Part shown: one piece after another, positions 8,514 through 63,641 of the stretch | Position numbering within the stretch: position 1 is the stretch's first letter | Layout of the letters: each line of letters starts with the position of its first letter | Source of the DNA: an uncultured Syntrophaceae bacterium | GTDB lineage: Bacteria > Desulfobacterota > BSN033 > UBA1163 | Reading direction: 5' to 3' | Assembly: GCA_964390545.1 (NCBI GenBank) | Contig: CAYMJV010000005.1 | Span: forward strand, 1 to 63,766 | Length of the DNA: 63,766 bases | The notes under the pieces: model-generated | Seen by the model: the letters and a program-made list of their open reading frames with translations, nothing else | The model's database searches: none | What the model was told of the DNA's origin: nothing | Translations under genes and position numbers: made by a program

Positions 8514-8525
8514 CGTACGCCTCCG

Positions 8526-32487: not shown

Positions 32488-32536
32488 GTAGGTTTAATCC
32501 TTTTCCCTTTTAAATAGGACCCTAAAGCCTCATCAA

Positions 32537-35159: not shown

Positions 35160-35364
35160 ATAGTTACTAAAACGTAACCAACCAACTTCACGGGTTACTT
35201 TCGGCGAAATCCTCAAAAAAAGAAACTCAAGATTAAGTTCTCAAAAAGCAAAGGCAGGGTCAGAGAAATGACCCTGCTCCTCAACCATGGAAGGAGACAA
35301 TGTTGACTCAGCTTCAACCCCATTTCTGAAAAGCGAATGGGGTTTTTTGTTCGGAAGGAGATTT

Positions 35365-35697: not shown

Positions 35698-35766
35698 TTT
35701 TCGAGGTGGAGGCGTTATAATACCCAGGGCGTTTCAAATATCTTCAGCTTCCAGAGGAGGTGTGTT

Positions 35767-37051: not shown

Positions 37052-37126
<75 letters not shown>

Positions 37127-38173: not shown

Positions 38174-38229
38174 AATCGAGAAACCACCGGAGAAGGGCTT
38201 CAATGGAGTGTGTCTAATAGAGGATCTTT

Positions 38230-38517
38230 TCAAACCTTTTGGGCAACATTTCGTTTCGAAGCCTTGAGAGGGTTCAATTTGAAGGTATCCTCTTTTACCT
38301 CTTTCTTCACGTGGGTGGCGAAATTGCAAGCTCCCTTTGCCCATTTGATAGAAGGCTCACAATAGGTCTTACAATAGGAACCCACCTCATAAGTCACCAC
38401 ACGGTCACATCCCTTGCAGGCTTCCACGATGGGATAGCATCTCCCACCGTTGTAGGAACAGCCATTCTTCTTCATGAAGATGCATTCCGTTCCTACTTTG
38501 ACAGTTTGACAAACCAT
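38230..38517 (-). CDS. PxxKW family cysteine-rich protein
   Basis: Cys-rich; EPSIKW motif and CNFATHVK; GGAGG RBS before MVCQ. Confidence 0.85.
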   Translation of the reverse strand: MVCQTVKVGTECIFMKKNGCSYNGGRCYPIVEACKGCDRVVTYEVGSYCKTYCEPSIKWAKGACNFATHVKKEVKEDTFKLNPLKASKRNVAQKV

Positions 38518-38777
38518 GGCAATCAACCTCCCCTCTTTATGGATTAATTTTGTAACTAGTTGAAATAATTAATTATTACAATTTCCAAAAAGAGCATAAA
38601 AAAAAGAGCTACCGACTAGGTAACCCATTTTGGTAAAAACCAAAACGTATTTAATTAATCTAGTATAATTTATGAAATTTGTCAAGAGAAATTGTTGAGA
38701 AATTTTTGACAGCTGAAAAACTACCTCACGCTCTCTCCAAAGATTTCTGGGCTTTTTCAGAAATCGAAAAGGGTTCC

Positions 38778-38805
38778 TTGACAATTCTCTGAAAACGGAT
38801 AGAAT
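38778..38805 (+). promoter_or_regulatory. Sigma-70 promoter of the SDR-spt-GNAT operon
   Basis: TTGACA-N16-TAGAAT. Confidence 0.6.
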
Positions 38806-38831
38806 TTTAAAATTTGAACAGGGAGAGATCT

Positions 38832-39812
38832 TTGAAATCATTGGTCACCGGAGCCACAGGTTTTATTGGAAGCCATCTCGTAGAGGCTCTCTTACAACGA
38901 GGGGATCAAGTCCGATGCCTCGTCCGGAACTTGAGCGATTTGAAGTGGCTGGAAGGTCTGCCCATTGAGGCGGTTCAGGGTAATTGTAATGACAAAAGTT
39001 CCTTGAAAGGCGCTGTCGCAGGAGTGGACCAGTTGTTCCATCTGGCAGGTGTGACCAAGACTGTTGATAAAAGAACTTATTTCGAAGTCAATGCCTATGG
39101 AACGGAAAACCTCATCCGGGCCTGCCTTGAACATAATCCTTCCCTCCAAAAATTTATTTATCTTTCAAGCCAGGCCGCAGCAGGACCTTGCCAGAATGGA
39201 GGGCAGAAGAAAGAGACGGATCTGTGCGAACCTGTCTCTCCTTACGGCCAGAGCAAGCGGATGGGAGAGGACCTGGCCCTCGCCCACACACACGAGTTGC
39301 CCCTTCTCATCCTCCGCCCTTCTGCAGTCTATGGTCCGAGAGATCGGGATATCTACACTTTCTTCAAACTCCTCTCTAAAAAGATCAGACCCTGTTTCTA
39401 CAGCCAAGAGCAACATATCAGCTTATGTTTTGTCGGGGATATTGTCCAAGCCATCCTCCTGGCTTCCGATAAGAAAGAAGGGAGCGGAGAAATATTCTTC
39501 CTCTCCGACGGGCAGGATTATCGAATGGAGGAAGTCAGCGATATTTTTGCCTCCGTCATGGGGGTGAATCCGGTCTGTATTCGACTTCCAGAATGGATGA
39601 TATACGGAGTGGCTTCTTTATCTGAATATCTCTCCAAGCTTACGGGGAAACCTGCTCTCCTCAGTCGAGGGAAGGTCGAAGAGATGGTTCAGAAAAACTG
39701 GGTCTGTGATATCACAAAAGCCAGAACGGTCTTGGGTTTCAAACCCGTTGTCTCTCTTGCCGAGGGAGCTCGATTGACCTTTGAATGGTACAAGAAAGAG
39801 AATTGGCTATAG
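38832..39812 (+). CDS. Extended SDR NAD(P)-dependent epimerase/reductase; candidate ceramide or 3-ketosphinganine reductase
   Basis: TGATGFIG Rossmann motif, YGQSK (YxxxK); the specific role is inferred from context only. Confidence 0.8.
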   Translation: MKSLVTGATGFIGSHLVEALLQRGDQVRCLVRNLSDLKWLEGLPIEAVQGNCNDKSSLKGAVAGVDQLFHLAGVTKTVDKRTYFEVNAYGTENLIRACLEHNPSLQKFIYLSSQAAAGPCQNGGQKKETDLCEPVSPYGQSKRMGEDLALAHTHELPLLILRPSAVYGPRDRDIYTFFKLLSKKIRPCFYSQEQHISLCFVGDIVQAILLASDKKEGSGEIFFLSDGQDYRMEEVSDIFASVMGVNPVCIRLPEWMIYGVASLSEYLSKLTGKPALLSRGKVEEMVQKNWVCDITKARTVLGFKPVVSLAEGARLTFEWYKKENWL

Positions 39813-39832
39813 CTAAAAAAGCGAGGTGGCCT

Positions 39833-41014
39833 ATGGACGTCTTTGAAAAATGCGACAAGGTCAATGAACAAATTAGAGAGGTGGTTGAAAGGGGTTACTA
39901 TTTTTACTTCCGCAAGCTCGAATCGCCCCAAGATGCCGAGGTGGTGGTGAATGGAAAAAGAGTCATCATGATTGGCTCGAACAATTACCTCGGTCTAACG
40001 AACCACCCTCGCGTCAAGCAGGCTGCCATCAAAGCCATTGAAAAGTTCGGATGTGGTTGTGCCGGGTCGAGATTTCTCAACGGGACGCTTGAAATCCACG
40101 TTGAACTCGAAAACAAACTGGCCCGCTTTTTCCGCAAGGAAGCAGCCCTCGTCTTTGCCACTGGGTACCAAACCAATCTGGGAGCCATTTCGGCTCTGGT
40201 GGGACGAAATGATGTGGCGATCATTGATAAATACGATCATGCGAGCATCATTGATGGGTGTCGTCTCTCTTTTGGAAAGGTGAAGAAATATCGACATAAC
40301 GACATGAAGGATCTGGCACGTACCCTCGAAGCAACCAAAGACAAAGGGAAATTGATTATCGTCGATGGCGTCTTCAGCATGGAGGGTGATATTGCTGATC
40401 TCCCGAATATCGTCAAATTGGCCAAGACTTATGGGGCCAGGGTGATGGTAGACGACGCCCATGCTATAGGCGTCTTAGGGGAAGGTGGAAGAGGGACTGC
40501 TGAGCATTTCGGTCTGGAGAATGAAGTCGACCTCATTATGGGGACCTATAGCAAATCACTCGCTGCCATCGGTGGGTTTGTTGTGGGGGCACAGGATGTC
40601 ATTAATTTTATCAAACATACTGGCCGCTCCATGATCTTCAGTGCCAGCCTCCCACCTGCTCTCGTGGCGTCCGTCAGTGAAGCCCTTGACATCATCGAGG
40701 AACAGCCACAGCTCAGGACCCAGCTCTGGAAGAATACTCACAGGATGCTCAAAGGTTACAAGGAGCTCGGCTATGATACGGGCACAAGCGAAACCCCTAT
40801 CGTGCCGGTTATCATCAAGGACAACTGGAAAACCTATGAGATGTGCAAACGTCTCTTTGAAGAGGGTGTCTTTGTCAATGCTGTCGTCAGCCCGGCGGTC
40901 CCTCCCGGAAGGGAACTGCTCCGCACGAGTTATATGGCTACCCATACCGAAAGCCAGTTGAATCGAGTTCTGGAGGCCTTCCAAAAGGTTGGAAAAGAGA
41001 TGAGACTGATCTGA
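39833..41014 (+). CDS. spt: Serine palmitoyltransferase (PLP-dependent alpha-oxoamine synthase)
   Basis: GSNNYLGL, GSRFLNGT, DDAHAIG, GTYSKSLAAIGGF, IFSASLPPA; these match SPT rather than BioF or KBL variants. Confidence 0.8.
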   Translation: MDVFEKCDKVNEQIREVVERGYYFYFRKLESPQDAEVVVNGKRVIMIGSNNYLGLTNHPRVKQAAIKAIEKFGCGCAGSRFLNGTLEIHVELENKLARFFRKEAALVFATGYQTNLGAISALVGRNDVAIIDKYDHASIIDGCRLSFGKVKKYRHNDMKDLARTLEATKDKGKLIIVDGVFSMEGDIADLPNIVKLAKTYGARVMVDDAHAIGVLGEGGRGTAEHFGLENEVDLIMGTYSKSLAAIGGFVVGAQDVINFIKHTGRSMIFSASLPPALVASVSEALDIIEEQPQLRTQLWKNTHRMLKGYKELGYDTGTSETPIVPVIIKDNWKTYEMCKRLFEEGVFVNAVVSPAVPPGRELLRTSYMATHTESQLNRVLEAFQKVGKEMRLI

Positions 41015-42153
41015 TGGATACCGATCGAATGTCAAACCAGGAACTCCATATTGAAGAGGTAAGAAATCGTCAGGATTTGATGACTTTTATCCGATTTCCC
41101 TGGAGGATCTATCAGGGAGATCGCTACTGGGTCCCTCCCCTCATCAAAGATCAACTCCAGAAATTTAGCCCAAACCATCCTTTCCGTTCTCATTCAGAGA
41201 TGACCCTCCTTCTCGCCTACCGAGGAGAGGAGGTCGCGGGAAGGATTGCAGGGATCGTTGACCACAGCTTTATAGAGTTTCATCAGGAGAAGACGGGTTT
41301 CTTCGGATTTTTCGAATCAATTCAAGACGCTCAAGTAACCGGACTCCTTCTGTCCAGCGCGAAAGACTGGCTCAGGGGGCATGGGATGGAGAAAATGATA
41401 GGGCCGATGAATCCCTCCACCAATGATGAATGTGGCCTCCTGATCGATGGGTTCGATTCCTCTCCTCGTCTCATGATGCCATACAACCCTGTCTACTATA
41501 ACGCCTTGCTTGAAGGGGCCGGTTTGAAGAAGGCCAAGGACCTCTATGCTTTCTTTATTGAGCAATCGACTTTCATTGCGGGACGTCTGAGCCGGATCGC
41601 TGCTAAATTGATAAAGAAAGAACCGGGCCTTCGGGTTCGCCCCATCAATCTCCGCCGCTTGGGCCAGGAATTAATGATCGTCAAGGATATCTATAATCAT
41701 GCCTGGAGTAGAAACTGGGGATTCGTCCCCCTGACCGAGGCCGAGATCGATGACCTTGCAAAAAATCTGAAGCCCCTGTTGGTCCCCGATTTAGTGCTCT
41801 TTGCCTATTGGCAGGATGAACCCGTCGGGTTCTCCGTCTCCCTTCCAGACTATAATGAAGTTCTCAAAAGGTTGAATGGGAAATTGGGCCCCCTTGGATT
41901 CCTCAAATTCCTCTATTTCTCGAGGAGGATCGACACCGTTCGGGTCATGCTTCTGGGCGTGAAACATGCCTTCCAAAAGAGAGGAGTGGAGGGGCTCCTC
42001 TATTACGAGACCTTTAAACGAGGAACTAGAAAAGGTTATTTCAGGGCAGAATGCTCCTGGATTCTCGAAGATAATCTCCTGATGCAGCACGGTATTGAAG
42101 CCATGGGAGGAAAACGTTATAAGACGTACCGAATCTACGAAAGCACTCTGTAA
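41014..42153 (+). CDS. GNAT-fold N-acyltransferase; candidate bacterial ceramide synthase
   Basis: FIRFPWRIY..WVPPL, GFFGFFE, GPMNPSTNDECG, AWSRNWGFVP, ECSWILEDN; TGATG overlap with spt. Confidence 0.7.
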   Translation: MDTDRMSNQELHIEEVRNRQDLMTFIRFPWRIYQGDRYWVPPLIKDQLQKFSPNHPFRSHSEMTLLLAYRGEEVAGRIAGIVDHSFIEFHQEKTGFFGFFESIQDAQVTGLLLSSAKDWLRGHGMEKMIGPMNPSTNDECGLLIDGFDSSPRLMMPYNPVYYNALLEGAGLKKAKDLYAFFIEQSTFIAGRLSRIAAKLIKKEPGLRVRPINLRRLGQELMIVKDIYNHAWSRNWGFVPLTEAEIDDLAKNLKPLLVPDLVLFAYWQDEPVGFSVSLPDYNEVLKRLNGKLGPLGFLKFLYFSRRIDTVRVMLLGVKHAFQKRGVEGLLYYETFKRGTRKGYFRAECSWILEDNLLMQHGIEAMGGKRYKTYRIYESTL

Positions 42154-42222
42154 AAGGACTGAGTGAGAAGCTATGAGGGATGAGTCGGACATTTGAATGA
42201 GTTATTGCTCAGTCCTCAGATC

Positions 42223-43089
42223 TTAGTACTCGTCACCTTTTTTGGGGTTCCACCCTCTGTACAGTTGAGGCGCGATGATCAATGACGCGATGGCAAACGC
42301 AACACCGGCAAAAAGATCAATGACATAGTGGTACCTCAGATAGACCGTCGAGAGGATCAACCCACAGATGATCGGAAAGAAAAGACAAGAAAGCAATTTT
42401 TCGTAGCGGTAGGCCAGATAAAGGACCATGAGCACAATCTGAGTATGGCCACTGGGCATGCAATCGCGTTTGTTATGTTCCAGGGCATTCAAAGTATTTC
42501 TCACAAAATCGGTAATCCATGTTCCCTCCAGGGGCACAGAGTGAAATGAGGTTAATGTAAATCGGGGTCCAATCGCTGGAAAGAGAATGTACCCGATAAA
42601 GGAGGCATAGTATCCAAAGGTTAATACAAAGATCGATTCATTGAATTCCAGCTTTCGGTTTTTTATGTAAAGGACAACCACGAGGGTGAGGGGAAGGAAA
42701 TAGTAACTCAAATAGGCCAAGGACATGACATCCGTAAACCAGGGAACAACCCACCTCTCCATCCAAACCGTAGGATGCACGCCAAACAGGAAGAGGTCGA
42801 TTTGTATTAGCCAGGAGTCGATATCCCGTCGGAGATACTGAATCAGATCACCGAGCGACTCGTAAATAAGGATGATGAATATCAGCGGTGAGAAATCGTT
42901 GAAGAAGGCCCCTCCTTTCCCCTTGCGATCAGAGGATATTTTCATCACAAAGAGAAGGGCCATCAACATCAGGTAGCGGAGGAGGAGGGAGTGCCAGAGC
43001 GGAATGTGCCCTTTAAAGATGAGTGTGAGGAGAATCAATCCAATCAAAAAGAAAAAGGTCAGTCCGTGAACGGGAGTAATTTTTCTCAT
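42223..43089 (-). CDS. PAP2 superfamily membrane protein, Aur1/IPC-synthase-like
   Basis: PAIGPR, MPSGH and LRYHYVIDL motifs; N-terminal IDxxLFG..P segment. Confidence 0.75.
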   Translation of the reverse strand: MRKITPVHGLTFFFLIGLILLTLIFKGHIPLWHSLLLRYLMLMALLFVMKISSDRKGKGGAFFNDFSPLIFIILIYESLGDLIQYLRRDIDSWLIQIDLFLFGVHPTVWMERWVVPWFTDVMSLAYLSYYFLPLTLVVVLYIKNRKLEFNESIFVLTFGYYASFIGYILFPAIGPRFTLTSFHSVPLEGTWITDFVRNTLNALEHNKRDCMPSGHTQIVLMVLYLAYRYEKLLSCLFFPIICGLILSTVYLRYHYVIDLFAGVAFAIASLIIAPQLYRGWNPKKGDEY

Positions 43090-49537: not shown

Positions 49538-52216
49538 TTAGGCTCTTGCCTGTGTTTCTTTAGGGAGGCAGCATTTTTTGTACTTCTTCCCGCTTCCGCA
49601 GGGGCACGGATCATTCCGGCCCACCTTCTTTCCATCCCGGCGTACGGTCACACCCTTTCCACTCTCGGTCTCTCCGCCTGCGGTGACAGCGGGTTCTGCT
49701 CCTCGGCTCAGGAAAAAGGTTTGCCTTTTGGGCAACTTCATCTCTTTGACTTCTTCATCCCTAGCGATTTGAACAGCAAAGAGCTTTTCGATCGTATCCT
49801 TCTTAATGCGGTCTAACATGTCAAGAAACATTTGATAGGCTTCTTTTTGATATTCAATGCGCGGGTCTTTCTGGGCATACCCTCGTAATCCGATCCCTTC
49901 CTTCAACTGATCAATGGCAAAGAGATGATCCTTCCAGTGATGATCGACCGATTGCAGCATGATCACTTTTTCCAGGTATCGAAGCGTGCCTTCGCCAAAT
50001 TCTTCCTCCTTCTTCTGGTAAAGATCCTTTCCTTTCTGCAGAATCATCTCTTTCAGACGATCCCGATTGAGTCCATCTTCCTCCCCTGAGGAAGGTGCCC
50101 ATCGGAAAGAGAACTGCTGGTAAACGGCGTCGGCGAGTCCCTTCAGGTCCCAATCCTCTGGGTGGAGCTTTTCATCTGCATAGAGATCGACAAGCCCTTC
50201 TGTCTGTTCCTCAATCATCTCCATGACAGATTCTTTCAAATCGTCACTCCCCAGAACCTCTCTTCTCTGAGAGTAAATGACTTCTCTCTGCTGGTTCATG
50301 ACATTGTCATACTCCAGAAGTTGCTTCCGGATCTCAAAATTATGGCCCTCCACCCTCCTCTGGGCATTTTCGATAGCTTTGGTAACAAGATTATGTTCGA
50401 TAGGTTGGTCTTCCTCAATTCCCAATCGATCCATGATGCTGGAGATTCTCTCGGAGCCAAAAATTCTTAAGAGGTCATCCTCGAGAGAGAGATAAAAGCG
50501 GGAAGATCCTGGATCACCTTGCCTTCCGGACCGGCCCCTCAATTGATTGTCGATACGCCGGGCTTCATGCCTTTCGGTTCCAATGACATGAAGGCCTCCC
50601 AACTGGGCCACGCTCTCCTTATCCTTTTGAACAATAGCCAGAGCCTTCCCATAGGCTTTCTTCATCGCCTCTTCTGTGGGCTCTCCTTCAACCATGGGTT
50701 TGGACAAGAATTTTGGATTCCCACCCAGAAGGATATCTGTCCCCCTTCCTGCCATATTGGTTGAGAGGGTGACGGCGCCTCCCCTTCCCGCCTGGGCGAT
50801 GATCTCAGCCTCTTGCTCATGATGTTTGGCATTGAGGACATTGTGGGGAATCCCCCGCTTCTTCAACATCTGGCTCAATCGCTCTGATTTCTCGATGGAA
50901 ATGGTCCCGATCAGCGCCGGACGCCCTATTCGATGGAGTTCTTCAATCTCGCGGACAACCGCACGGAACTTCTCGTTCTCCGTTTTATAGATGACATCGG
51001 AATGATTCGTTCGCATCAACGGCATGTTAGTAGGAATGACCACCACGTCGAGGTTGTAAGTCTTCCGAAATTCAGCTGCTTCCGTGTCCGCCGTGCCCGT
51101 CATCCCTGCCAACTTCTTATACATCCGAAAGTAGTTCTGAAAAGTGATCGTGGCCAGGGTTTGATTCTCGTTTTCTATTCGAACATTCTCTTTCGCTTCC
51201 ACCGCCTGATGGAGGCCATCGCTCCACCTCCTCCCGGGCATGAGCCTCCCGGTAAATTCATCTACGATCACCACCTCGCCTTCCTTCACCACATAGTCTA
51301 CATCCCTTTTGAATAAGGTATGAGCTCTCAAAGCTTGATTCACATGATGGAGGGTCTCAATATTTCTGGGGTCATAGAGATTCTCAACATGAATTAGCTT
51401 TTCGACATGACCGACACCCTCTTCCGTCAGAAAGGCTGTGTGACTCTTCTCCTCCAACTGATAATCCTTCCCCTGCTTCAGGGAGGGGATGATGCGGTTG
51501 ATCTTGTAATACTTATCCGTGGACTCCTCGGCCGGGCCGGAGATGATCAGGGGCGTCCTCGCCTCATCGATCAGGATGCTATCCACCTCATCGACAATGG
51601 CATAGTTCAAATCCCTCTGGACATAATCTTCGATGCTGAACTTCATGTTGTCCCGGAGGTAATCAAATCCGAATTCATTGTTCGTCCCGTAGGCGATATC
51701 ACAACCGTAGGCCTTCTTTCTCTCCTGGTCATTTAACTCGTGGAGGATCACTCCCACCGAGAGGCCTAGAAACCTGTAGATCGCTCCCATCCATTCACTA
51801 TCTCTTTTTGCCAGGTAGTCATTCACCGTCACAATATGGACGCCTTCCCCCTTGAGCCCGTTCAAATAAGCAGGAAGGGTGGACACCAAGGTTTTACCTT
51901 CTCCAGTCGCCATTTCGGAAATCTTGCCTTCGTGAAGGACAATCCCTCCGATGAGCTGCACATCGTAGTGCCGCTCACCCAGCGTCCTTCTGGCTGCCTC
52001 GCGAACGACAGCGAAAGCCTCAGGGAGGATCTCCTCCAGTGATTCCCCTCGATCGATCCGTTCTTTTAATTCCGAGGTTTTGGTCCGGAGTTGACCATCC
52101 GTCAAAGGCCGCACCTGGGGCTCCAGTGCATTGATCCGTTGAATCATCGGTCGGATCCTCTTCAACTCCCTCTCGTTCTTACTTCCCACAATCTTTTTAA
52201 TCAGTGACCCAATCAT
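49538..52216 (-). CDS. secA: Preprotein translocase ATPase SecA
   Basis: [33 protein letters not shown]-terminal SEC-C motif [17 protein letters not shown]; start reassigned to MIGSLIK. Confidence 0.98.
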
Positions 52217-52233
52217 GAAACCCTTCACCCTGA

Positions 52234-52318
52234 TCATTGGAATGATGGAATATTGGAAGGGTGGAATCATGGGGCTATATTCGACAAACCCAAAATTCCA
52301 TTCATCCACTATTCTGGA
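52234..52318. repeat. Periodic inverted-repeat element, GGAAT/ATTCC type
   Basis: TTGGAAT GATGGAA TATTGGAA GGGTGGAATC versus ATTCCATTCATCCACTATTC. Confidence 0.7.
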
Positions 52319-52428: not shown

Positions 52429-53343
52429 CTAATTCAAAATATATCGCGCGGGATTGATCGGAATGCTATTAATCTTAACTTCGTAGTGGAGATGAGGGCC
52501 GGTTGTCTTTCCGGTCATTCCCACCTCCGCAATCTTATCTCCCCGTTTCACCCTCTGCCCAGTCTTTACAAGAACCTTGCTCAGGTGGCCGTAGCGGGAG
52601 GTCATACCAAATCCATGGAAGATCACGACAACCTTTCCGACGGCGACATCATTTCCGACGTCCGAAACGATTCCGTTCGAGGGAGCGATCACAGGGGTTC
52701 CTATCCGATTTGAAATATCAAGACCCTCATGCATCTGAGTTAAACCCGTAAAGGGGTTTGTACGATACCCGAAACCCGATGTCACCCAACCCTGCACCGG
52801 CCAGACGGATGGGGTATGGGCTAACATCTCCCTCTTCACCTGCAAAAGTTTCTCGAGTTCAGAAAGGCTATCCTCCCGGGACACAGCCTCGGATTGGAGG
52901 CGCTCGACATCGCTTTTCATCTGTTGAACCAGTCCGGCATCATCTTTCTCTTTTTTCAATTTATCCCGAATGTCAGATGGAGATGGACCCCCCATTCCCA
53001 AGGAAGGGGTGGTTTCCTGTCCTCTCTCGAGATTAGCAATGATTCGAATTTTCTTGTCGAATTCTTTCAGTTTGGAGAGTTGTTTCTCCAGATCTTCAAT
53101 TCTTGCTGAGAAGAATTGAATCTGAGACCTCTGGTTTTGGGTCTCCTGACGGAGACGGCTCAATTCAAAGGCCTTCTTTTTAACCTGAATGTAATCGCAA
53201 AAGAAGAATGTTGTAGAAAGAAGGGCGAAACCAATCAGATAGAATGAAATCTTTACGGTCTTTTTCCGTATCTTAAGATGGCGGGTCTTCGCGGCCTTGT
53301 GGCCAAAGATAAGAATATTAAAGTATTCTTTATCCAAGGTCAC
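52429..53343 (-). CDS. M23 family metallopeptidase (coiled coil plus LytM domain)
   Basis: MHEGLDI, YGHL, TGPHLHYEV motifs; N-terminal TM and coiled coil. Confidence 0.93.
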   Translation of the reverse strand: MTLDKEYFNILIFGHKAAKTRHLKIRKKTVKISFYLIGFALLSTTFFFCDYIQVKKKAFELSRLRQETQNQRSQIQFFSARIEDLEKQLSKLKEFDKKIRIIANLERGQETTPSLGMGGPSPSDIRDKLKKEKDDAGLVQQMKSDVERLQSEAVSREDSLSELEKLLQVKREMLAHTPSVWPVQGWVTSGFGYRTNPFTGLTQMHEGLDISNRIGTPVIAPSNGIVSDVGNDVAVGKVVVIFHGFGMTSRYGHLSKVLVKTGQRVKRGDKIAEVGMTGKTTGPHLHYEVKINSIPINPARYILN

Positions 53344-53615: not shown

Positions 53616-55013
53616 TTAAATTCCGCTAATTTTCAACCGTCTCACAAGAAGGCTCGGAGAGCCAATCCCTCCGATGAATCGAAAATCTTCCCCTATCCCT
53701 ACCACATCCTGAAAAAGTTGGAAAAGATTCCCAGCTACTGCCACCGATTTGACCGGGTGGACCAGCTTCCCTTTATCGACCCATTTCCCCGAGCAACCGA
53801 GGGAGAAGTCCCCTGAGATAGGATCGACGGTATGAAGGCCCATCACCTCCTCCAGCAACACTCCTTGATAAAGGTCGCTCAGTAGAGCGGAAAAGGGGAG
53901 CGTCCCGGGCTCAATAAGGAAGTTCGAAGTTCCTATTCCAGGGGGCGACTTGATACCTGATCTTCGACTGTTTCCTGTGGATCTAACGGTTGGTCCTGAC
54001 GAGGCGCTTTCCCGATTGGCCCAGTAACGGTCATAGAGATAACCGGATAACTCTCCTTGGACGACTAAAGCTGTCCGTTGACTTCGCGTCCCCTCTCCGT
54101 CTATCGGGGCAGTGAAAATCCCTTTCGGGTGAAGTCCATTATCTTCAATCGTGATCAAAGGAGAGAAATATCTCTCCCCCTTTTTTCCTTTCAGAGGGGA
54201 TTTCCCTTTCTGAATCTGTTCGCTTTTGAAGGAATGCGCAAGAAGGGACAAAAATTCCGAAGCGACGCTATGGTGGATAAGGACAGGATAGACTCCAGAG
54301 GGAATTTTCCTCCCCCCGAGACTCTCCAGCGCCTTCCGGCTGGCCTCCCTCCCTACGCTTTTTACATCGAGGTCACTCTGAAAATGGCTGGCATCAAAAT
54401 CCCATCCCACTTCTGCTTCTTCCGCCTCCTCGGCCACTGCAGTCACACTGACGGAGCAGAAAGTGGACAGATACGAAAATTGAAGTCCATTGGAATTGAT
54501 CAGTGTTCGATGAGCAATGCCCTCTTGATAGGATGCCTTTCTCACTTTTTGAATCTTTTTCGGATCAACGGATCGAGCCGCCTTCTCCAGCTCTTTTGCT
54601 TTTTCGATCTTTACCTTTTCTGAAGTTCCTTCCAATGTTTCGTCAAAAATCGGAGGTGAAGGAGGGGCCTCCTTCAGAGGAGGGGCAAAGTCATAACAGG
54701 GGTCAGAAGCGGTGTCCCCAGCGCTGGCAATCGCGTCATCAATGACCTGTTCCAATTCGCCCAAAGGATTCTTTGACTCAACCTGAAAGACGCCTGAAAA
54801 AGTGGTGTAGGAAAATCCGATACGCTGACGGTTCAGAATACGAAATGCCATCCCCAAGGAATGGGAAACCTGGAAGGTATCGATCCCACCGTCCTTAGAT
54901 TCCACATCAAAATGGGAGGACTGATCGAGATAAATCTCATACCCATCAATTGGCTTTCTACGCAGAATTGCCAGAGTTTGAGCAATGATTTCGTCGGGAC
55001 GATTCATACTCAA
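53616..55013 (-). CDS. pmbA: TldD/PmbA family protein, PmbA (TldE)-like
   Basis: DGEGTRSQRT, SGDFSLG, AVAGN motifs; lacks the HExxxH of TldD. Confidence 0.85.
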   Translation of the reverse strand: MSMNRPDEIIAQTLAILRRKPIDGYEIYLDQSSHFDVESKDGGIDTFQVSHSLGMAFRILNRQRIGFSYTTFSGVFQVESKNPLGELEQVIDDAIASAGDTASDPCYDFAPPLKEAPPSPPIFDETLEGTSEKVKIEKAKELEKAARSVDPKKIQKVRKASYQEGIAHRTLINSNGLQFSYLSTFCSVSVTAVAEEAEEAEVGWDFDASHFQSDLDVKSVGREASRKALESLGGRKIPSGVYPVLIHHSVASEFLSLLAHSFKSEQIQKGKSPLKGKKGERYFSPLITIEDNGLHPKGIFTAPIDGEGTRSQRTALVVQGELSGYLYDRYWANRESASSGPTVRSTGNSRRSGIKSPPGIGTSNFLIEPGTLPFSALLSDLYQGVLLEEVMGLHTVDPISGDFSLGCSGKWVDKGKLVHPVKSVAVAGNLFQLFQDVVGIGEDFRFIGGIGSPSLLVRRLKISGI

Positions 55014-55240: not shown

Positions 55241-56272
55241 TTACCATCTGATCAGGCTGCTTCCCCAAGTGAGGCCTCCACCGAAAGCGGTGAGGATGAT
55301 CAGGTCTCCTTTGCAAATGGATCCGTTTCGCACGGCCTCGTCCAGGGCGATCGCCACCGTGGCGGATGAGATGTTCCCGTACTTTTCGATGGTAAGATAA
55401 ACTTTCTCGATAGGGACGTTCAGTCGCTTTGCCACCTGCTGAAGCATACGTAGATTGGCCTGATGGGGAATCACCCATTTCACATCGGAAAGATGGATGT
55501 GGTTATAAGAAGCTGCTTCTTCGGCAGCCTCTGCAAATCGTTTGACAGCCATGCGAACCGATTCATTGGCTTTAATCATTCTCAGAGTATGGAGTTTCTT
55601 GTCCACGCTTTCATAGCTAATGGGAGTGGTCTTCGACCCGCCCCCCGGAAGAAGGAGGTTTTGACCATTTGCGCCGTCCGTATGGATGTGAACGGAAAGG
55701 ATTTCGCTGACCTCCTTTTCCTTATGCTGCACCGACTGATGTCTTCCGGATGAATCAAAGGCCTGAAGCACGGCCGCCCCTGCTCCATCTCCCCAGAGAA
55801 TACAACTCTCCCGATCTGTCCAATCGAGGGTTCGACTCATGATCTCGACAGCAACGACCAGTGCGGTTTTGAATGTTCCACATTTGAGATATTGTTCGGC
55901 CACAGAAAGGCCAAAAATGAATCCACAACAAGCCGCGGTCACATCGAAGGAGACCGCCTTCTCTGCTCCTAATTTTGCTTCTAGCCAATTCGATCCCGCA
56001 GGACAGGCCGTATCCGGCGTCATGGTGGCCATAACGATGAGGTCCAAATCCTTGGCCGAAACCCCCGCCATCTCTATGGCCCGCAACGAGGCCTCCTTCG
56101 CAAGATCGGACGCGTTCACATTCGGCGCTGCAATCCTCCTCTCCTTAATCCCCGTCCGTTTAAAAATCCATTCGTCATCCGTATTCAGGATCTTCTCCAG
56201 ATCGAAATTCGAGAGGATTCTTTCCGGAAGAAAGGAACCGGTTCCTAATATCCCGATCCTTCTGCCATCCAT
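55241..56272 (-). CDS. fabH: 3-oxoacyl-ACP synthase III
   Basis: TAACCGF (Cys), PHQAN (His), GNISSA (Asn), FGGGLTWG. Confidence 0.93.
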   Translation of the reverse strand: MDGRRIGILGTGSFLPERILSNFDLEKILNTDDEWIFKRTGIKERRIAAPNVNASDLAKEASLRAIEMAGVSAKDLDLIVMATMTPDTACPAGSNWLEAKLGAEKAVSFDVTAACCGFIFGLSVAEQYLKCGTFKTALVVAVEIMSRTLDWTDRESCILWGDGAGAAVLQAFDSSGRHQSVQHKEKEVSEILSVHIHTDGANGQNLLLPGGGSKTTPISYESVDKKLHTLRMIKANESVRMAVKRFAEAAEEAASYNHIHLSDVKWVIPHQANLRMLQQVAKRLNVPIEKVYLTIEKYGNISSATVAIALDEAVRNGSICKGDLIILTAFGGGLTWGSSLIRW

Positions 56273-56353
56273 CAGCAAACTCCTTCTCAAAGATTTAAGA
56301 TTATTAATCAGTCCATAATAATAACTACATTGTTTTATAAAATCCCTCCTCAC

Positions 56354-56415
56354 CTCCCTTTTCCAAAGGGAGGAACAATACCCCTCTTTGGAAAAGAGGG
56401 GTTAGGGGAGATTTT
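56354..56415. repeat. REP-like hairpin cluster (CCCCTCTTTGGAAAAGAGGGG family)
   Basis: Related to 27916-27952, 59949-59988 and 63590-63640. Confidence 0.6.
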
Positions 56416-56513
56416 CAGAAGAATAAGTCTCCTCTATTATAGACTGATTAATATGTCTTACCCTTTCGCCCCTTCTTCTAAATCCTCAATGATCAATTAT
56501 CAATGATCATTGT

Positions 56514-57986
56514 TCATTGCCCATTGGTCGTTTGAGGGGGGTTGGGAGGATGAGTACCAGACCATCGGAGATGAAAGGGCAGGTAGAAAATCCTGAGATC
56601 AAAAGACTCCCCATCCCTCCGATACAAAAACAGCCCTTTCAGAAGAGAGACGCTCTTCACTCCATTCCATTTTTTAACACCGATCAGGTGAGCGACCTCC
56701 CAGTAGTCCAATCCCTCTTTCTCCATCTTTATGTACAATCCCCAAAGGAGATTGGTGGAAATCCCTTTCGGAGGATCCTTCTCCCAGCGGTAGATTCGAA
56801 ACAGGGGAAAAAAATTCCTTTCAAGCCCTTCTTCCTTAAATGGGAAAAGATAGAAGACGTTGAGGATCTCGTGACCCCCTTCTTCCCTTTCATAATCATA
56901 GATGGGCCAGATTCGAATGGATTCCCCTTTCTCTCTTCCCTGAGGACCCTCGCCCGTTCGTATGCGGCTGAATAAGATGCGATAGGTCGTCTCATGGAAA
57001 TCTGTCAGCCAGTCCTCCTCATATTGATAGAAGGGATAGAGGATGAAGACCCTCTTCGACTCTCCCTCTCTCACCTTATAACCATAAAAAAGGAAGAATC
57101 TCTTCCCGTAGAGGTTTTCCCCTTTGAAGGTCCGAAAAAGAGGCCAGGGCAGATCCCACTGTTCGAAACCTGTGCGCTCCTCTTTGGCATGGGAGAAGAG
57201 TGGCCACAGAATGGTCTTGCTGTAGAAATATTTGGATTCCTTTGAAATATAAAAGGGAAAAACCATCCATTCATCCGTCGGATCATCTGTATCCAATCCT
57301 TTTGTCTTTTTCACGAAGATGGGCCACAAAAGAAAGGCTTGCGTTGAAACCCCAACCTCCTCCTTTCTCCCGTAGATGGGCCAGATTCGGTACCCTTTCT
57401 TCTTCTCGCCGCTCGTGGAGGAGACAAAGGGCCAAAGGAAGTTTTGGGTACGAACGCCTTCTGAGAGCGAATCCGAATAGAGGGGCCAGAGATAAAAATG
57501 GATTTCATCCTTACCATATCGTTTCAGAAGTGTACCGAAAAGGGGGAAGAGACCGAAATAATCTTCTCTCTCTTCCGTCTCTCCAATAAAGAAAGGGAAG
57601 AATTGAAAATCCCATTTCTCCTTTCCATCGAACGTCTGATCCCTGTAGGAAGAAAGCGGGAAGAGGTATCCCTTTTCATCATCGCCCTTGATTTGATATT
57701 TTCCGAATGGATAAAGAAACTCTAATCTCTTCAGACCCTCGTCTTCATCCCTCGTCCAGTAAAAAAAGGGACGAAACCCCCACCCCCTTCGACCCGATTC
57801 CTTTTTCAAGTGGAAGAGAGGACCTAATCCCTCGGCCTCACTTATTCCTTCCACCGGGTCAGACGTATAATGGAAAAAGGGCCAGAAATTGATCGTGACC
57901 GGTCTCTCGCCTGCTAGGGAAGGAAAAGGGATGACGGAAAGAAAGAGGATTACCGTCAACAAGAAAAATTGCTTTCGGATTATCAT
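56514..57986 (-). CDS. Exported protein with about 19 aromatic-Pro-aromatic repeats (for example LWPLY, FFPFF)
   Basis: Signal peptide ending SLA; repeats spaced roughly 15-20 aa apart; directly downstream of mlaD. Confidence 0.8.
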   Translation of the reverse strand: MIIRKQFFLLTVILFLSVIPFPSLAGERPVTINFWPFFHYTSDPVEGISEAEGLGPLFHLKKESGRRGWGFRPFFYWTRDEDEGLKRLEFLYPFGKYQIKGDDEKGYLFPLSSYRDQTFDGKEKWDFQFFPFFIGETEEREDYFGLFPLFGTLLKRYGKDEIHFYLWPLYSDSLSEGVRTQNFLWPFVSSTSGEKKKGYRIWPIYGRKEEVGVSTQAFLLWPIFVKKTKGLDTDDPTDEWMVFPFYISKESKYFYSKTILWPLFSHAKEERTGFEQWDLPWPLFRTFKGENLYGKRFFLFYGYKVREGESKRVFILYPFYQYEEDWLTDFHETTYRILFSRIRTGEGPQGREKGESIRIWPIYDYEREEGGHEILNVFYLFPFKEEGLERNFFPLFRIYRWEKDPPKGISTNLLWGLYIKMEKEGLDYWEVAHLIGVKKWNGVKSVSLLKGLFLYRRDGESFDLRIFYLPFHLRWSGTHPPNPPQTTNGQ

Positions 57987-58001
57987 AGCTCTGAAGGGAT
58001 G

Positions 58002-59033
58002 TTAAAAGAAGATCCCGATGAGGGTCCCCAAGACGGTGATGGGCGTTTGTTCCTCAATGCTCTCAGCAGCCTTTTGAATCTTCTTCATCGTCTTCTCTGC
58101 TTCTTTCATCAACTGATCATCACTGACCAGTTTTCCCAGAGTCCCCTCCCCTTTCTCCACTTTCTCTGCAATCCCTTTCATCGACTGAATCGTGTCTTTC
58201 GCGTCTTGGTAGAGAGATTCATCCTTAACCAATTTGCCCAGAGTCCCCTCTCCCTTTTCAATCTTTTCCGAAAGATTCTTCAGGGTGTCAACAGCCTGTT
58301 TAGCAGACTCTGCTGCTTCCCTGGCCGTTTCCACTGTCTTCTTCGCTTCCTGATAGATTGTCTCGTCGGTAATCAGTTTCCCCAGGGTGCCCTCCCCTTT
58401 TTTCACCTTATCTCCGATCTCTTCAACCCTGGAGAAGGCATCTTTGGCCTTCTGGATCGTCTCTTTTGCATCCTTGCTCATGCCCGTCAACTGACTCGAA
58501 AATGTATTGAGGTTGTCAACCATCCTCTCTACTTTCTTCGGATCTACGGACTTTAATAGATCGCCTATGGGTTTTGCGATTTCTTTAATATCCTCCCGGA
58601 TGGCACCCATTTTACTCAACATCTGTTCAATATCGGTGGGGGGCTCCCCTTGCTCTATCTCCCCATTAGGCTCCACCCTTGGAAATACAGGTGTCCCAGG
58701 AGAAATTTCGACGAACTTCTCTCCCAGGAATCCTTCCGATTTAAGGTAGGCCTTTGAATCTTTATAAAGAACGATATGAGGTGGAACCCGAAACGTGACC
58801 TTCGCCCTTCCCTTTTCCAACATCACTTTCTCGACGTTCCCCACATGAACGCCAGCCACCCTGACTTCTGCACTTCGATCCAGACCAGCGCCTGAATCGA
58901 ATAAAATGTTCACCAGATATCCCCTCTCTTTTCCAATCGGAAATTTTTCAACCTTCATGGTGAGCAAGGCTAAAAGGAGGATACTGATGACGACAAATAT
59001 CCCAACCCATATCTCTGAACTTTTTTTCTTCAT
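58002..59033 (-). CDS. mlaD: MCE/MlaD family protein with extended helical C-terminus
   Basis: N-terminal TM, MCE domain (GL..SAEVRVAGVHVG, GFLGEKFVEI), three GEGTLGKL repeats. Confidence 0.9.
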   Translation of the reverse strand: MKKKSSEIWVGIFVVISILLLALLTMKVEKFPIGKERGYLVNILFDSGAGLDRSAEVRVAGVHVGNVEKVMLEKGRAKVTFRVPPHIVLYKDSKAYLKSEGFLGEKFVEISPGTPVFPRVEPNGEIEQGEPPTDIEQMLSKMGAIREDIKEIAKPIGDLLKSVDPKKVERMVDNLNTFSSQLTGMSKDAKETIQKAKDAFSRVEEIGDKVKKGEGTLGKLITDETIYQEAKKTVETAREAAESAKQAVDTLKNLSEKIEKGEGTLGKLVKDESLYQDAKDTIQSMKGIAEKVEKGEGTLGKLVSDDQLMKEAEKTMKKIQKAAESIEEQTPITVLGTLIGIFF

Positions 59034-59169
59034 CTTTATCCCCTCCTTATTCCCCTCACCCCATCCCTCTCCTCTGAGAAGGCTGTGTCATAATAGAAAA
59101 CACGAAACTTCTCATTCGACAGCCTCCAAGATGCCCAGGGGACAGGCAGGCGGCTGAGGGGAATTCAAC

Positions 59170-59943
59170 TTACAAGACCTTGATCGGGCCCTCCGATCTT
59201 CCATGGATGAATTGCTGCACAATAGGGTTCACGGAGCTTTTGATCTCCTCCGGGCTCCCGACCTCGACAATTTTCCCTTGGTAGAGCATGGCAATCCGGT
59301 CAGCAATTTTATAAGCGCTCGTCATATCGTGGGTGATGGCAATAGAGGTCATGTTCAACTGCTCTCTCATCCGTATGATCAGTTCATTGATGGCATCGGC
59401 CATCACAGGGTCGATTCCAGTTGTGGGCTCGTCGTAAAGAAGGATCTCCGGCTCCATGGCAATGGCCCTGGCCAGACTGACCCGTTTCTTCATCCCTCCG
59501 CTCAACTCTGCCGGCATGATATCCTCAATATTTCTCAATCCCAGAAGGGCCAATTTCTCAGTCGCGATCCTTCTGATCTCCTCGTCACCGAGCTTCTTGT
59601 GTTGACGGAGTCCGAAACCGACGTTCTCCCAAACGCTCAAAGAATCGAAAAGGGCGCCTCCTTGAAAGAGCATTCCAAATTTCTTCCGAACTTCATTCAA
59701 CTCCCGTTCGCTCAATGAACTGATCTCCTGCCCGTCGACATAGATCTCTCCCTCATCGGGCTGAATAAGTCCGATGACGCATTTGATCAGGACCGTTTTG
59801 CCCGAACCGCTCCCTCCAATGACCACCATGCTCTCCCCTTGCCGCACCTCTAAATTGACGCCGTGGAGAACCTCCTTCTCGGTAAAGGATTTAAAAAGAT
59901 TGACCACACGGATTTTTGGATCAGAATTCCTACCCATCATCAA
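59170..59943 (-). CDS. mlaF: MlaF-type ABC ATPase
   Basis: GGSGSGKT, FQGGALFDSL, LSGGMKKRVSLARA, YDEPTTG, THD. Confidence 0.92.
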   Translation of the reverse strand: MMMGRNSDPKIRVVNLFKSFTEKEVLHGVNLEVRQGESMVVIGGSGSGKTVLIKCVIGLIQPDEGEIYVDGQEISSLSERELNEVRKKFGMLFQGGALFDSLSVWENVGFGLRQHKKLGDEEIRRIATEKLALLGLRNIEDIMPAELSGGMKKRVSLARAIAMEPEILLYDEPTTGIDPVMADAINELIIRMREQLNMTSIAITHDMTSAYKIADRIAMLYQGKIVEVGSPEEIKSSVNPIVQQFIHGRSEGPIKVL

Positions 59944-59985
59944 TCCTAAAATCTCCCCCCCTTTGTTAAAGGGGGAGAGGGTGGA

Positions 59986-60765
59986 TTAAAACAGAAATGC
60001 TGTAATAAAATAATTTGAGATTAATATCGTTAGAGATGAGACAACAACAGCCTTGGTCGTCGCCCGGCCCACTCCTTCAGCTCCCCCTTCCGCTGAAAAT
60101 CCCTGATAGCAACTGATGGTGGCTATGATCATGCCGAACACAACAGCCTTCAGCAGGCCGCTATAAAGGTCGCTAAATTCCAGATAATTCCATGTTCTCC
60201 GAATGTAGATCGTCGGATTGGCTCCCAGAATTTGAACGCTCACCAGATACCCACCCAGAATGCCGATAACATCAGCAAAGATGACGAGCACGGGGAGCAT
60301 GATCGACGCAGCTAAGAATCTCGGAACGATCAGATATTTGATCGGGTTGGTGGCCAGCGTATAAAGGGCATCTATCTGTTCCGTCACTCGCATCGTTCCA
60401 AGTTCGGCAGCCATTGCAGAACCCACCCGGCCAGAGACCATCAATCCTGTTAAGACGGGGCCCAATTCCCTTGTGACGGACAGAGCGACGACGGTCCCTA
60501 CCATCGTCTCCGCGCCGAACCGTTTAAATCCGGTATAACTCTGTAAAGCCAGGACCATTCCTGTAAAAGCGGCCGTGATGATGACCACCGGAAAGGACCG
60601 AACACCCACCTCTTGCATCTGTTTTATTATTTCTCTCCCTTGAAGCGGAGGCCGAAAGGTCCAGCTCAGGGTCTTCGCAAAGAGGATCATGATCCGTCCT
60701 GCTTCCTCTGCGAACCGTATTGATTGAATTCCAATCCATCGAAACAGATTCAAGAGAACCCCCAT
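59986..60765 (-). CDS. mlaE: MlaE-type ABC permease
   Basis: RELGPVLTGL, AAELGTMRVTEQIDAL, GAEGVGRATT motifs. Confidence 0.95.
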   Translation of the reverse strand: MGVLLNLFRWIGIQSIRFAEEAGRIMILFAKTLSWTFRPPLQGREIIKQMQEVGVRSFPVVIITAAFTGMVLALQSYTGFKRFGAETMVGTVVALSVTRELGPVLTGLMVSGRVGSAMAAELGTMRVTEQIDALYTLATNPIKYLIVPRFLAASIMLPVLVIFADVIGILGGYLVSVQILGANPTIYIRRTWNYLEFSDLYSGLLKAVVFGMIIATISCYQGFSAEGGAEGVGRATTKAVVVSSLTILISNYFITAFLF

Positions 60766-60769
60766 CACG

Positions 60770-60895
60770 AAATGCAATGTCAAAGTCCAAAATCAAAATT
60801 CCAAATGAATGTCAAATATCAAAAATTTTCCAAATGATTTGAAATTTAAACATTTGGATTTCATTTGAACTTTGAACTTTGTCATTTGAAATTTA
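60770..60895. repeat. Periodic inverted-repeat element, CAAAT/TTTG type
   Basis: Same arm layout as 16853, 26578 and 49401; between alr and mlaE. Confidence 0.85.
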
Positions 60896-62038
60896 TAATT
60901 TTCCCTTATAGATCCTTGGAATTCTTTTCCCTATAGAACAGAACACTTCATACGAGATGGTATTCATCCTATCTGCCATCTCCTCCGCCGTGATGATCTC
61001 CTTCCCCTGGCTTCCGATCAAAACGACTTCATCTCCTAATGAAACCTTGGGAATATCTGTTACGTCCACCATGATGAAATCCATGCAAACCTTTCCCACG
61101 ACAGGGGCCCTCTTCCCCCGGACCAACACTTCTCCTCGATTGGAGAGGTAGCGACTGTACCCATCTGCATATCCAATGGGAAGGGTGGCGATGAGGCTTT
61201 CTCTCCTGGTCACAAAGGTCCCTCCATAACTGATCCTGAATCCAGAAGGGACGGACTTTAAGAAATGGATGCGAGTCCTTAGGGTCATCACGGGCTTGAG
61301 GTGAATGAGGCTCTTCAACACGGGAGAGGGATAAGCCCCATAAAGCATGATCCCTGGCCGAACCAGATTCCCGGAATAGTAAGAAGAGGTTGTGAGCAAG
61401 GCACTGCTGGCCATATGAACGTATTTGCAACGAATTCCTAATTCTTCAGCACACCTCACCGCCCCTAGAAATTGATCCCATTGATGTTTGGTATAATCTT
61501 CCTCGCTCATCATAGAAAAATGGGAGAGAATGCCTTCGACTTCAACTTTTGGGAAATGAGGGATCTCTTTTAGAAAATTGGGCCAGAGAGATAAGGGGAC
61601 GCCCAACCGCCCCATCCCTGTATCCACTTTGAGGTGAACCCTTACCTTCTTCTTTCCTCTTTGGGCTACTTTGGAGATGAACTTCAAGGCCTCCTTATGA
61701 AAAACAACAGGAGTGAGGTCGAACCGAAAAATCTTTTCAATATCTCCATCATAAATTCCACCCAGGACAAGGATCGGCGCCCTCACTCCTCCTTTTCTCA
61801 GCTCCACCCCTTCTTCCGCAATGGCAACACCCAGATACTCGACTCCTAATTTCTCCAACTTACGAGAGATCGGAACGGCTCCATGACCATAGGCATCCGC
61901 CTTTACAACGGCCAGGATTTTTACTCCTTTCGGGACCCTCTTTTGAAGTTGTCGATAGTTAAAGGCAAGGGCATCCAGGTCGATCTGTGCGATCGTTGGC
62001 CTTCCGGGCGTTAGAGATAAATTTCTCTTGAGGTTCAT
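60893..62038 (-). CDS. alr: Alanine racemase
   Basis: AVVKADAYGHG, KVDTGMGRLG, PIGYADGY motifs. Confidence 0.97.
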   Translation of the reverse strand: MNLKRNLSLTPGRPTIAQIDLDALAFNYRQLQKRVPKGVKILAVVKADAYGHGAVPISRKLEKLGVEYLGVAIAEEGVELRKGGVRAPILVLGGIYDGDIEKIFRFDLTPVVFHKEALKFISKVAQRGKKKVRVHLKVDTGMGRLGVPLSLWPNFLKEIPHFPKVEVEGILSHFSMMSEEDYTKHQWDQFLGAVRCAEELGIRCKYVHMASSALLTTSSYYSGNLVRPGIMLYGAYPSPVLKSLIHLKPVMTLRTRIHFLKSVPSGFRISYGGTFVTRRESLIATLPIGYADGYSRYLSNRGEVLVRGKRAPVVGKVCMDFIMVDVTDIPKVSLGDEVVLIGSQGKEIITAEEMADRMNTISYEVFCSIGKRIPRIYKGKL

Positions 62039-63581: not shown

Positions 63582-63641
63582 CTCTCCCTTCCCCCTAATC
63601 CCCCCAACCCCCCTTTAGCAAAGGGGGGAAAGGGGGGATTC

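Follow-up and report, generated by a model that had tools for sequence, protein, structure and literature searches.

We analyzed a window of 63,766 nt, the whole stretch of contig CAYMJV010000005.1 given above, from an uncultured Syntrophaceae bacterium (assembly GCA_964390545.1). Its minus strand carries an operon for an MCE/Mla-type ATP-binding cassette (ABC) transporter, mlaE-mlaF-mlaD, followed by the gene for an exported, all-beta repeat protein of an uncharacterized family, here called RP. RP is a conserved, exported, operon-encoded companion of an MlaEF-driven needle MCE system, and it holds the operon slot that is occupied in known systems by an outer membrane (OM) lipoprotein resembling PqiC. 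The genes of the operon and the features within MlaD and RP were as follows.

59986-60783, minus strand: mlaE-like ABC permease, 265 aa from a TTG start, with an alternative ATG at 60765
59170-59943, minus strand: mlaF-like ABC ATPase, 257 aa
58002-59033, minus strand: long needle-type MCE protein ("long MlaD"), 343 aa
58695-58925, minus strand: MCE domain of MlaD, aa 37-113 (Pfam MlaD PF02470, 1.4e-17, 64 bits against a cut-off of 25)
58047-58631, minus strand: helical "needle" region of MlaD, aa ~135-329 (coiled-coil-type NCBIfam matches and alignment to PDB chain 13hr_I)
58374-58397, 58230-58253 and 58128-58151, minus strand: three GEGTLGKL repeats of MlaD, exact copies at aa 213, 261 and 295
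58005-58046, minus strand: hydrophobic C-terminal tail of MlaD, TPITVLGTLIGIFF, 14 residues, conserved
56514-57986, minus strand: RP, exported all-beta repeat protein, 490 aa
57912-57986, minus strand: signal peptide of RP, aa 1-25, with a signal peptidase I (SPase I)-type site SLA/GE (..PSLA/GERP, cleavage at the slash), read from the sequence
56559-57899, minus strand: predicted beta-meander of RP, aa 30-476, with 46 short strands and 24 greasy turns alternating with 22 charged or Gly turns (AlphaFold2)

The intergenic gaps were 42 nt between mlaE and mlaF, 136 nt between mlaF and mlaD, 15 nt between mlaD and RP (exactly, from the mlaD stop to the RP ATG), and 160 nt between RP and a downstream fabH-like gene. 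A first-pass annotation of this DNA had read the order mlaE-mlaF-mlaD with an exported 490-aa protein 15 nt further on, which the open reading frames and the Pfam and NCBIfam matches bore out; the end coordinate that it gave for mlaE, 60765, is the alternative ATG, and the TTG start extends the gene to 60783. MlaE matched Pfam PF02405 (1.7e-87) and TIGR00056 (288.5 bits against a cut-off of 212). The ATPase matched Pfam PF00005 (ABC_tran, 5e-34), and its top NCBIfam match was MlaF NF008809 (2e-63); because the latter score was under the equivalog cut-off, we call the ATPase MlaF-like and not a proven equivalog. Together with the membrane-anchored MCE-domain protein, the permease and the ATPase make a complete MCE/Mla-type ABC core by Pfam and NCBIfam. 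Within the 64-kb window, Pfam and NCBIfam found no MlaC, MlaA, or MlaB STAS partner in the operon, and a STAS domain was likewise missing from MlaE in the Pfam scan.

Metatranscriptome contigs from wetland and sediment, with 92–99% identity to the window, covered parts of mlaE, mlaF, mlaD, and RP at low depth, and none of the contigs listed crossed the mlaD-RP junction. This coverage is consistent with expression of the operon, and DNA carry-over is another possible source. One of the contigs (run X27) omitted 142 nt across the intergenic region between mlaE and its upstream neighbor alr (window 60763-60906), probably because strains of a related population vary here.

MlaD consists of an N-terminal transmembrane helix (hydrophobic at aa 8-26), one MCE domain, ~195 helical residues, and the hydrophobic tail. 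About 200 residues follow the MCE domain, and the ~200 extra helical residues with three GEGTLGKL repeats that the first-pass annotation described were thus found as stated, the repeats being exact copies. MlaD matched NCBIfam TIGR00996 (Mtu_fam_mce) over aa 10-251. Its best solved relative was PDB 13hr_I, a 312-aa "Mce/MlaD domain-containing protein" (E 7e-13, aa 3-296 of both), and the next PDB matches were short MlaDs and Mce1 chains, the latter at E 1.5e-8 to 3e-3. From its molecule name, its length, and a 2026 paper, 13hr_I is probably PA3213 of Pseudomonas aeruginosa. In seven gene tables, orthologues of MlaD carried the precomputed Pfam family PF28544 (Helical_needle), which was not reported for the window's own MlaD in our local Pfam scan. 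Because MlaD aligns with 13hr_I and its orthologues match PF28544, the system is of the tunnel or needle type, as had been proposed from the sequence at first reading. By analogy, MlaD would form a hexameric MCE ring and a long helical needle around a hydrophobic tunnel.

The MlaDs linked to RP in other genomes were 264–417 aa long and had one to four GTLGKL-type repeats. The tail motif (E)QTP(I/V)TVLGT(I/L)xGxxF ended all 38 of the RP-linked MlaDs examined, even at 22–31% MlaD identity. No segment resembling this tail was found in any PDB chain, including 13hr_I, PqiB, and Mce1, and a search with the tail alone gave chance matches. Since MlaD ends in helical repeats and then the 14-aa hydrophobic tail, it has no room for a C-terminal beta-barrel domain.

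RP had no Pfam or NCBIfam match at E ≤ 0.1, and a profile built from 45 homologues had no match among PDB sequences at E ≤ 10. In a word-indexed search we obtained 541 homologues, every one of them unnamed or "hypothetical". When a profile was run exhaustively against 1.84 billion cluster representatives, 1,856 proteins matched at E ≤ 1e-3, and 674 did so at E ≤ 1e-30, with clusters of the family counted at 50% identity. RP belongs to no described family. In the literature searched we found no description of such a family and no architecture like that of this operon, in line with the first-pass suggestion that the architecture might be undescribed. Among 137 full-length representatives with <50% mutual identity, the median length was 487 aa (interquartile range 472–504), a fixed size unlike that of the needle protein MlaD, whose length varies. 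Nine unusually long members of the family had no extra Pfam domains.

Every full-length member of the RP family begins with a signal peptide. A clear lipobox was found in 24 of 141 members, with a few further borderline cases, and none had Asp at position +2; among the related loci compared below (numbered with the prefix L), lipoprotein homologues were found at L021, L031, L033, L036, and L040. The RP of the window has an F+W+Y content of 20.6% and a C-terminus reading ...NPPQTTNGQ, and the last residue is Phe in 12 of ~140 representatives. Because the C-termini of the family are rarely aromatic and lie on variable tails, there is no canonical beta-signal.

An AlphaFold2 model of RP built from 45 sequences had a mean predicted local distance difference test score (pLDDT) of 85.3, with 95–97 over aa 140-330, and a predicted template modeling score (pTM) of 0.64. 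It showed 46 antiparallel strands of 5–8 residues each and one short helix at aa 389-396, and a second AlphaFold2 model, of aa 122-346 (pLDDT 92, pTM 0.70), left the strands unchanged. The motif [LF][WFY]P[FLI][FY] forms the turn after every odd-numbered strand. This gives 24 greasy turns, on average 18.9 aa apart, of which 20 have the central Pro; the figure of ~19 given for the repeats at first reading fits this spacing. Turns after even-numbered strands are tight and of the EG, GD, SG, DG, or EDEG type. The first-pass annotation had described aromatic-Pro repeats alternating with charged turns: the alternation stands, with the refinement that in the AlphaFold2 model the motif is not in the strands and forms every second turn.

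The strict motif [WFY]P[FLIVM][FYWVI] occurred 13 times in RP, whereas 5000 shuffles gave 0.5 on average and never more than 4. When turns were scored with Wimley-White interfacial values averaged over 258 members of the RP family, 23 of 23 odd turns were interface-philic (mean +0.32 kcal/mol) and 22 of 22 even turns were polar (mean -0.61 kcal/mol), a complete separation (Mann-Whitney U = 506, p = 1e-8). The hydrophobic stretch covers only ~7 residues around each Pro, and the hairpins are charged beyond ±5. At a mean identity of 28%, what stays invariant across the family is the Pro and Trp residues in the greasy turns. As the odd turns of a beta-meander share one edge, RP is predicted to be a long sheet with one greasy aromatic-Pro rim and one charged rim; the two rims follow from the sequence and the predicted strand order, and on that basis they hold for the whole family.

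A Foldseek comparison of the full RP model with the PDB gave tandem beta-propellers, teneurin YD shells, and OspA as best matches, with TM-scores of 0.09–0.19. For aa 122-346 the best matches were single-layer beta-sheets, namely OspA variants (query TM-score, TMq, 0.34) and the CPAP G-box (target TM-score, TMt, 0.33). Membership of RP in the propeller, teneurin YD-shell, or OspA families was rejected (E 1e-5 to 1e-2, TM-score 0.1–0.34, root mean square deviation 13–37 Å), the low TM-scores and high deviations indicating a local beta-meander similarity only. The top 50 matches of the full model and of the core included no AsmA/TamB, LptA/D, porin, or other OM barrel, save VDAC at a probability of 0.13, and Pfam found no AsmA, DUF490, or OstA domain in RP. 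The beta-groove or barrel proposed for RP in the first-pass annotation is thus not supported: AsmA/TamB, LptD, and porin matches were missing, the best local TM-score was at most 0.34, the strands are 5–8 residues long, and the C-termini are rarely aromatic. Foldseek likewise gave no known unrelated domain as the fold of RP, an outcome that the same annotation had named as fatal to its proposal. Judging from the models, the fold is probably new. Mean-field direct coupling analysis of the pairing of strands 1 and 46 (237–258 sequences, effective number ~180) gave top pairs that were terminal-gap or indel artefacts.

At 4.8 Å per strand, 46 strands span ~220 Å. Geometrically, this could be the circumference of a ring ~70 Å wide, enough for a needle of ~35 Å, or else the length of a ribbon on the scale of the periplasm. 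The fixed length of the family favors a defined number of strands, and fits a closed crown and an open ribbon alike.

To place RP in its genomic context, we compared 46 related loci, of which 38 came from one representative genome per species and 8 from individual homologue look-ups. Loci were scored by tblastn with the window proteins; 43 were informative, and L008, L021, and L045 were cut by contig ends. In 41 of the 43 informative loci, down to ~25% identity, RP was a same-strand neighbor of mlaD or mlaE. The first-pass annotation had staked its proposal on RP being tied to MCE operons in other genomes, and the tie is there. The other two loci, L031 and L033 (Desulfobacca), retain RP and the downstream genes and have lost the adjacent mlaEFD. 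In L036, related to L031 and L033, mlaD and RP are separated by a gene (5335-5784) for 149 aa, whose CLGNICRSP motif is of the low-molecular-weight phosphatase/ArsC-like type. In L041 (7518-9389) and L042 (680-2655), mlaE and a needle-type mlaD occur without an adjacent mlaF.

Close relatives share the whole alr-mlaEFD-RP-fabH-pmbA-M23 block, and distant ones only the MCE-RP module. The flanks in the latter include purine biosynthesis genes (L002), aconitase and a carotenoid-synthase-family gene (L041), dnaB, tgt, and secDF (L042), ornithine transcarbamylase (OTCase) genes (L044), and ychF with a radical-SAM gene (L046). Two gene orders were found, mlaE-(F)-D-RP and, in L040, L041, L043, and L044, RP-mlaE-(F)-D. 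Between mlaD and RP the median gap was 40 nt; 27 of 31 loci had a gap of at most 100 nt, with overlaps at several junctions. Taxon labels of the loci included Syntrophaceae/Syntrophobacterales, Thermodesulfatator, Thermosulfurimonas, Desulfobacteraceae, Bacteriovoracaceae, and Candidatus Tectomicrobia, and Syntrophia-like metagenome-assembled genomes were among the sources. No PqiC-type Pfam family was found in the seven gene tables. Gene order and flanks change across phyla while the linkage is kept, which argues for functional coupling between RP and the transporter; on these comparative grounds RP is a dedicated subunit of the system, probably co-transcribed with it.

Among characterized MCE systems, PA3211–PA3214 of P. 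aeruginosa and MpcEFDA of Brucella abortus, which has the same design (PMC12436622), are the "Mla-Pqi chimeric" systems. PA3213 forms a helical needle of ~170 Å, ~35 Å wide, in a periplasm-spanning subcomplex of ~230 Å, and the PqiC-like lipoprotein PA3214 sits on the needle as an octameric cap that holds the hydrophobic C-terminal peptide of PA3213 (PMC13631591). Like these systems, the operon in the window has four genes, for a permease, an ATPase, a needle protein of ~310–340 aa with a single MCE domain, and an exported accessory protein, and its MlaD aligns with 13hr_I over aa 3-296 and ends in a hydrophobic tail. However, the fourth gene of the chimeric systems encodes an alpha/beta PqiC-like lipoprotein of ~190 aa that forms an octameric ring, whereas the fourth gene here encodes the 490-aa all-beta RP, which has no PqiC-type Pfam match and is usually not lipidated. 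The MlaD tail also differs in sequence, and the MlaE of the window, unlike MpcE, has no STAS domain. The transporter is an MCE/Mla ABC member that works like the Mpc/PA3211-14 needle systems, minus the PqiC-like lipoprotein.

Other systems share less with it. In Escherichia coli PqiABC, PqiB is likewise an MCE protein with a helical needle whose C-terminal peptide docks to an OM partner, PqiC, but PqiB has three MCE domains, the inner-membrane partner PqiA is not an ABC component, and PqiC is unrelated to RP. The MlaEFD system of Veillonella parvula also has a minimal operon without MlaABC and a long helical MlaD that has been proposed to bridge the envelope, with beta-structure at the OM end (PMC10665443); there, however, the beta-barrel is a domain of MlaD, and here the beta-protein is the product of a separate, much larger gene and MlaD ends in a 14-residue tail. 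Mycobacterial Mce1 (PDB 8fed) is ABC-driven and has an MCE ring with a helical needle, but its six Mce proteins form a heterohexamer, accompanied by Mam/LucA-type accessories in a different envelope, and it lacks an RP-like protein. The E. coli MlaFEDB-MlaC-MlaA system has a homologous MlaE, MlaF, and MlaD core, but it is a shuttle system with a 183-aa MlaD, a soluble MlaC, and the alpha-helical OM lipoprotein MlaA, none of which is found in this operon. As for RP itself, the central sheet of Borrelia OspA and the CPAP G-box/TCP10 domain resemble aa 122-346 in having consecutive short antiparallel hairpins in one sheet, but the TM-scores are only 0.26–0.34, there is no sequence similarity, and these proteins lack a greasy rim, have many fewer strands, and are biologically unrelated.

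We lean, with slightly better than even confidence, towards RP being a dedicated subunit that replaces the PqiC-like lipoprotein at the OM end of an Mpc/PA3211-14-type needle MCE transporter. By homology, MlaE2F2 is the ATP-driven ABC module in the inner membrane. RP would act at the needle's OM end, where its 24 Leu/Phe-Trp-Pro-Phe-Tyr turns may dip into the inner leaflet of the OM, clasp the greasy tip of the needle, or both, with the charged rim facing the periplasm. The MlaD tail TPITVLGTLIGIFF is likely the docking element for RP, as the PA3213 tail is for PA3214. In this way RP would anchor the tunnel and join it to the lipid phase of the OM, and the substrate would most likely be a glycerophospholipid or another membrane lipid. 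As a tentative and rather doubtful extension, RP could be an OM gateway in which the 46 strands close into a crown of ~70 Å, only the aromatic-Pro rim sits in the inner leaflet of the OM, and the needle tip with its six hydrophobic tails plugs in, so that lipids would pass directly between tunnel and OM without PqiC, MlaA, or a porin.

Several observations weigh against placing RP at the OM end as a PqiC replacement. Some 80% of RP members have no lipid anchor, unlike PqiC-like proteins, and the 150 best representatives of the family listed included no MlaD-RP fusion. Inner-membrane retention of lipoproteins with Asp at +2 is an E. coli rule and may not hold in these phyla. The full-length AlphaFold2 model was built from 45 sequences of a repetitive protein, had a pTM of only 0.64, and was much less confident in two of its five versions, and RP stands without adjacent MCE genes in the two Desulfobacca loci.

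Three other explanations were weighed against this background. RP might be a periplasmic lipid handler, either an MlaC-like carrier or a ribbon of ~220 Å along the needle whose greasy rim binds acyl chains or the needle's outer face. Most RP members have an SPase I-type signal without a lipid anchor, the closest local resemblance in structure is to soluble single-layer beta-sheets (OspA, CPAP G-box), and the geometric span of 46 strands is near the length of the needle complex. However, 24 exposed Leu-Trp-Pro-Phe-Phe turns would be very unfavorable in a soluble monomer, a shuttle is unneeded in needle-type MCE systems (PMC13631591, PMC12436622), a sixth of RP members are lipoproteins, and RP has no similarity to MlaC, LptA, or AsmA-like folds; we consider this explanation unlikely. 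Somewhat more improbable is that RP forms a very large, single-chain integral OM beta-barrel or translocon, assembled by the beta-barrel assembly machinery (BAM), that lets the needle deliver or extract lipids, as a split-gene counterpart of the Veillonella MlaD barrel. An all-beta, exported protein with 20.6% F+W+Y and a size fixed across the family would suit such a barrel, and in V. parvula MlaD does bear an OM barrel domain, while long MlaDs without a barrel have been proposed to need other proteins (PMC10665443). The strands of 5–8 residues in the AlphaFold2 model are nevertheless too short to cross a bilayer, for which ~9 or more are needed, and only ~7 residues per greasy turn are hydrophobic, the rest of the hairpin being charged. 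A canonical beta-signal is also missing, with a C-terminal Phe in 12 of ~140 and variable tails, and the Foldseek matches contained no OM barrel save VDAC at its probability of 0.13.

Least probable in our view is that RP sits at the inner-membrane end, where it would surround the MCE ring as a collar or serve as an assembly factor, or that its function is only loosely tied to the transporter and operon inertia has kept it in place. The location of RP is itself inferred, RP is unlinked to MCE genes in the two Desulfobacca loci, and some clusters have no adjacent mlaF (L041, L042), all of which would agree with this explanation. Yet the linkage persists through changes of gene order and flanks across phyla, the lipoprotein members of the family lack Asp at +2, and the known ABC-type inner-membrane MCE complexes, such as MlaFEDB, need no such subunit.

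The remaining features of the window lie outside the transporter genes.

60893-62038, minus strand: alr, upstream neighbor of mlaE
56380-56402, minus strand: GC-rich hairpin after the RP stop, candidate operon end, with a 10-bp stem and a second hairpin next to it
55241-56353, minus strand: fabH-like, downstream neighbor of RP
53616-55013, minus strand: pmbA/tldD
52429-53343, minus strand: M23 peptidase
49538-52309, minus strand: secA
37196-43089: sphingolipid-type cluster, containing an LPG_synthase_TM protein
42223-43089, minus strand: PAP2_3 phosphatase
41014-42153: 379-aa protein without a family
39785-41014: Spt-like pyridoxal phosphate (PLP) enzyme (NF047600, 571 bits, under the cut-off of 640)
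38814-39812: HpnA-like short-chain dehydrogenase/reductase (SDR)
37055-37126, minus strand: tRNA, next to a low-GC stretch

A FabH-type beta-ketoacyl-ACP synthase III (NF006829, 376 bits) directly follows RP in the window and in the syntenic loci L001, L003–L018, and L023–L029. In these close relatives fabH is followed by pmbA/tldD in most cases and by the M23 peptidase in about half. The GTG start of fabH in the window adds an N-terminal extension of ~30 aa, which may be an over-call.

Two GC-rich palindromes lie between the RP stop and the fabH start (56355-56585), CCCCTCTTT-TCC-AAAGAGGGG and CCTCCCTTT-GGAA-AAGGGAGG. The hairpin at 56380-56402 came from a terminator-like scan, which as a whole was not enriched over shuffles. 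Similar hairpins were found at 27920-27940, 59956-59976, and 63608-63628, and the palindrome pattern occurred nine times in the window against 0.63 expected. Metatranscriptome contig depth at the intergenic palindromes was 136–221 (runs X26, X27), against 2–9 in the flanking genes, and many contigs broke at 56374-56381 and continued into unrelated sequence. The high depth and the breaks suggest a short palindromic element that is common to many contexts, either REP-like or a terminator. An Rfam scan of the window found only the tRNA and no match in the RP-fabH intergenic region.

The first-pass annotation had also suggested that the MCE system might carry the sphingolipids predicted nearby. 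This link was not supported: the sphingolipid-type cluster is ~15 kb from the MCE operon, with proS, pyrF, argJ, secA, and other genes between, so that proximity in the window is all that connects the two, and no Spt-like gene was found in the 46 related loci (flanks of a few kb, up to ~8 kb). GC content was 0.56–0.57 at 6001-10000, 0.40–0.42 at 32001-36000, and ~0.48 elsewhere in the window, and the two deviating stretches may be islands of foreign DNA.

How needle-type MCE transporters join the OM is an explicitly open question, to which RP bears directly. Needle MCE systems have been said to have "unknown OM binding partners" (PMC13631591), and "as yet unidentified proteins" have been invoked as partners of long MlaDs without a barrel (PMC10665443); RP is a good candidate for such a partner. 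The RP family is large, has no Pfam or NCBIfam model, and occurs in Thermodesulfobacteriota, Bdellovibrionota, and Tectomicrobia, almost always beside transporters of this kind. With its unusual predicted anatomy, a greasy aromatic-proline rim on a 46-strand sheet, RP is a candidate for a new fold, and its family deserves to be named in domain databases. If the crown gateway proved true, it would be a widespread "missing" OM partner of long MlaD transporters that lack a barrel.

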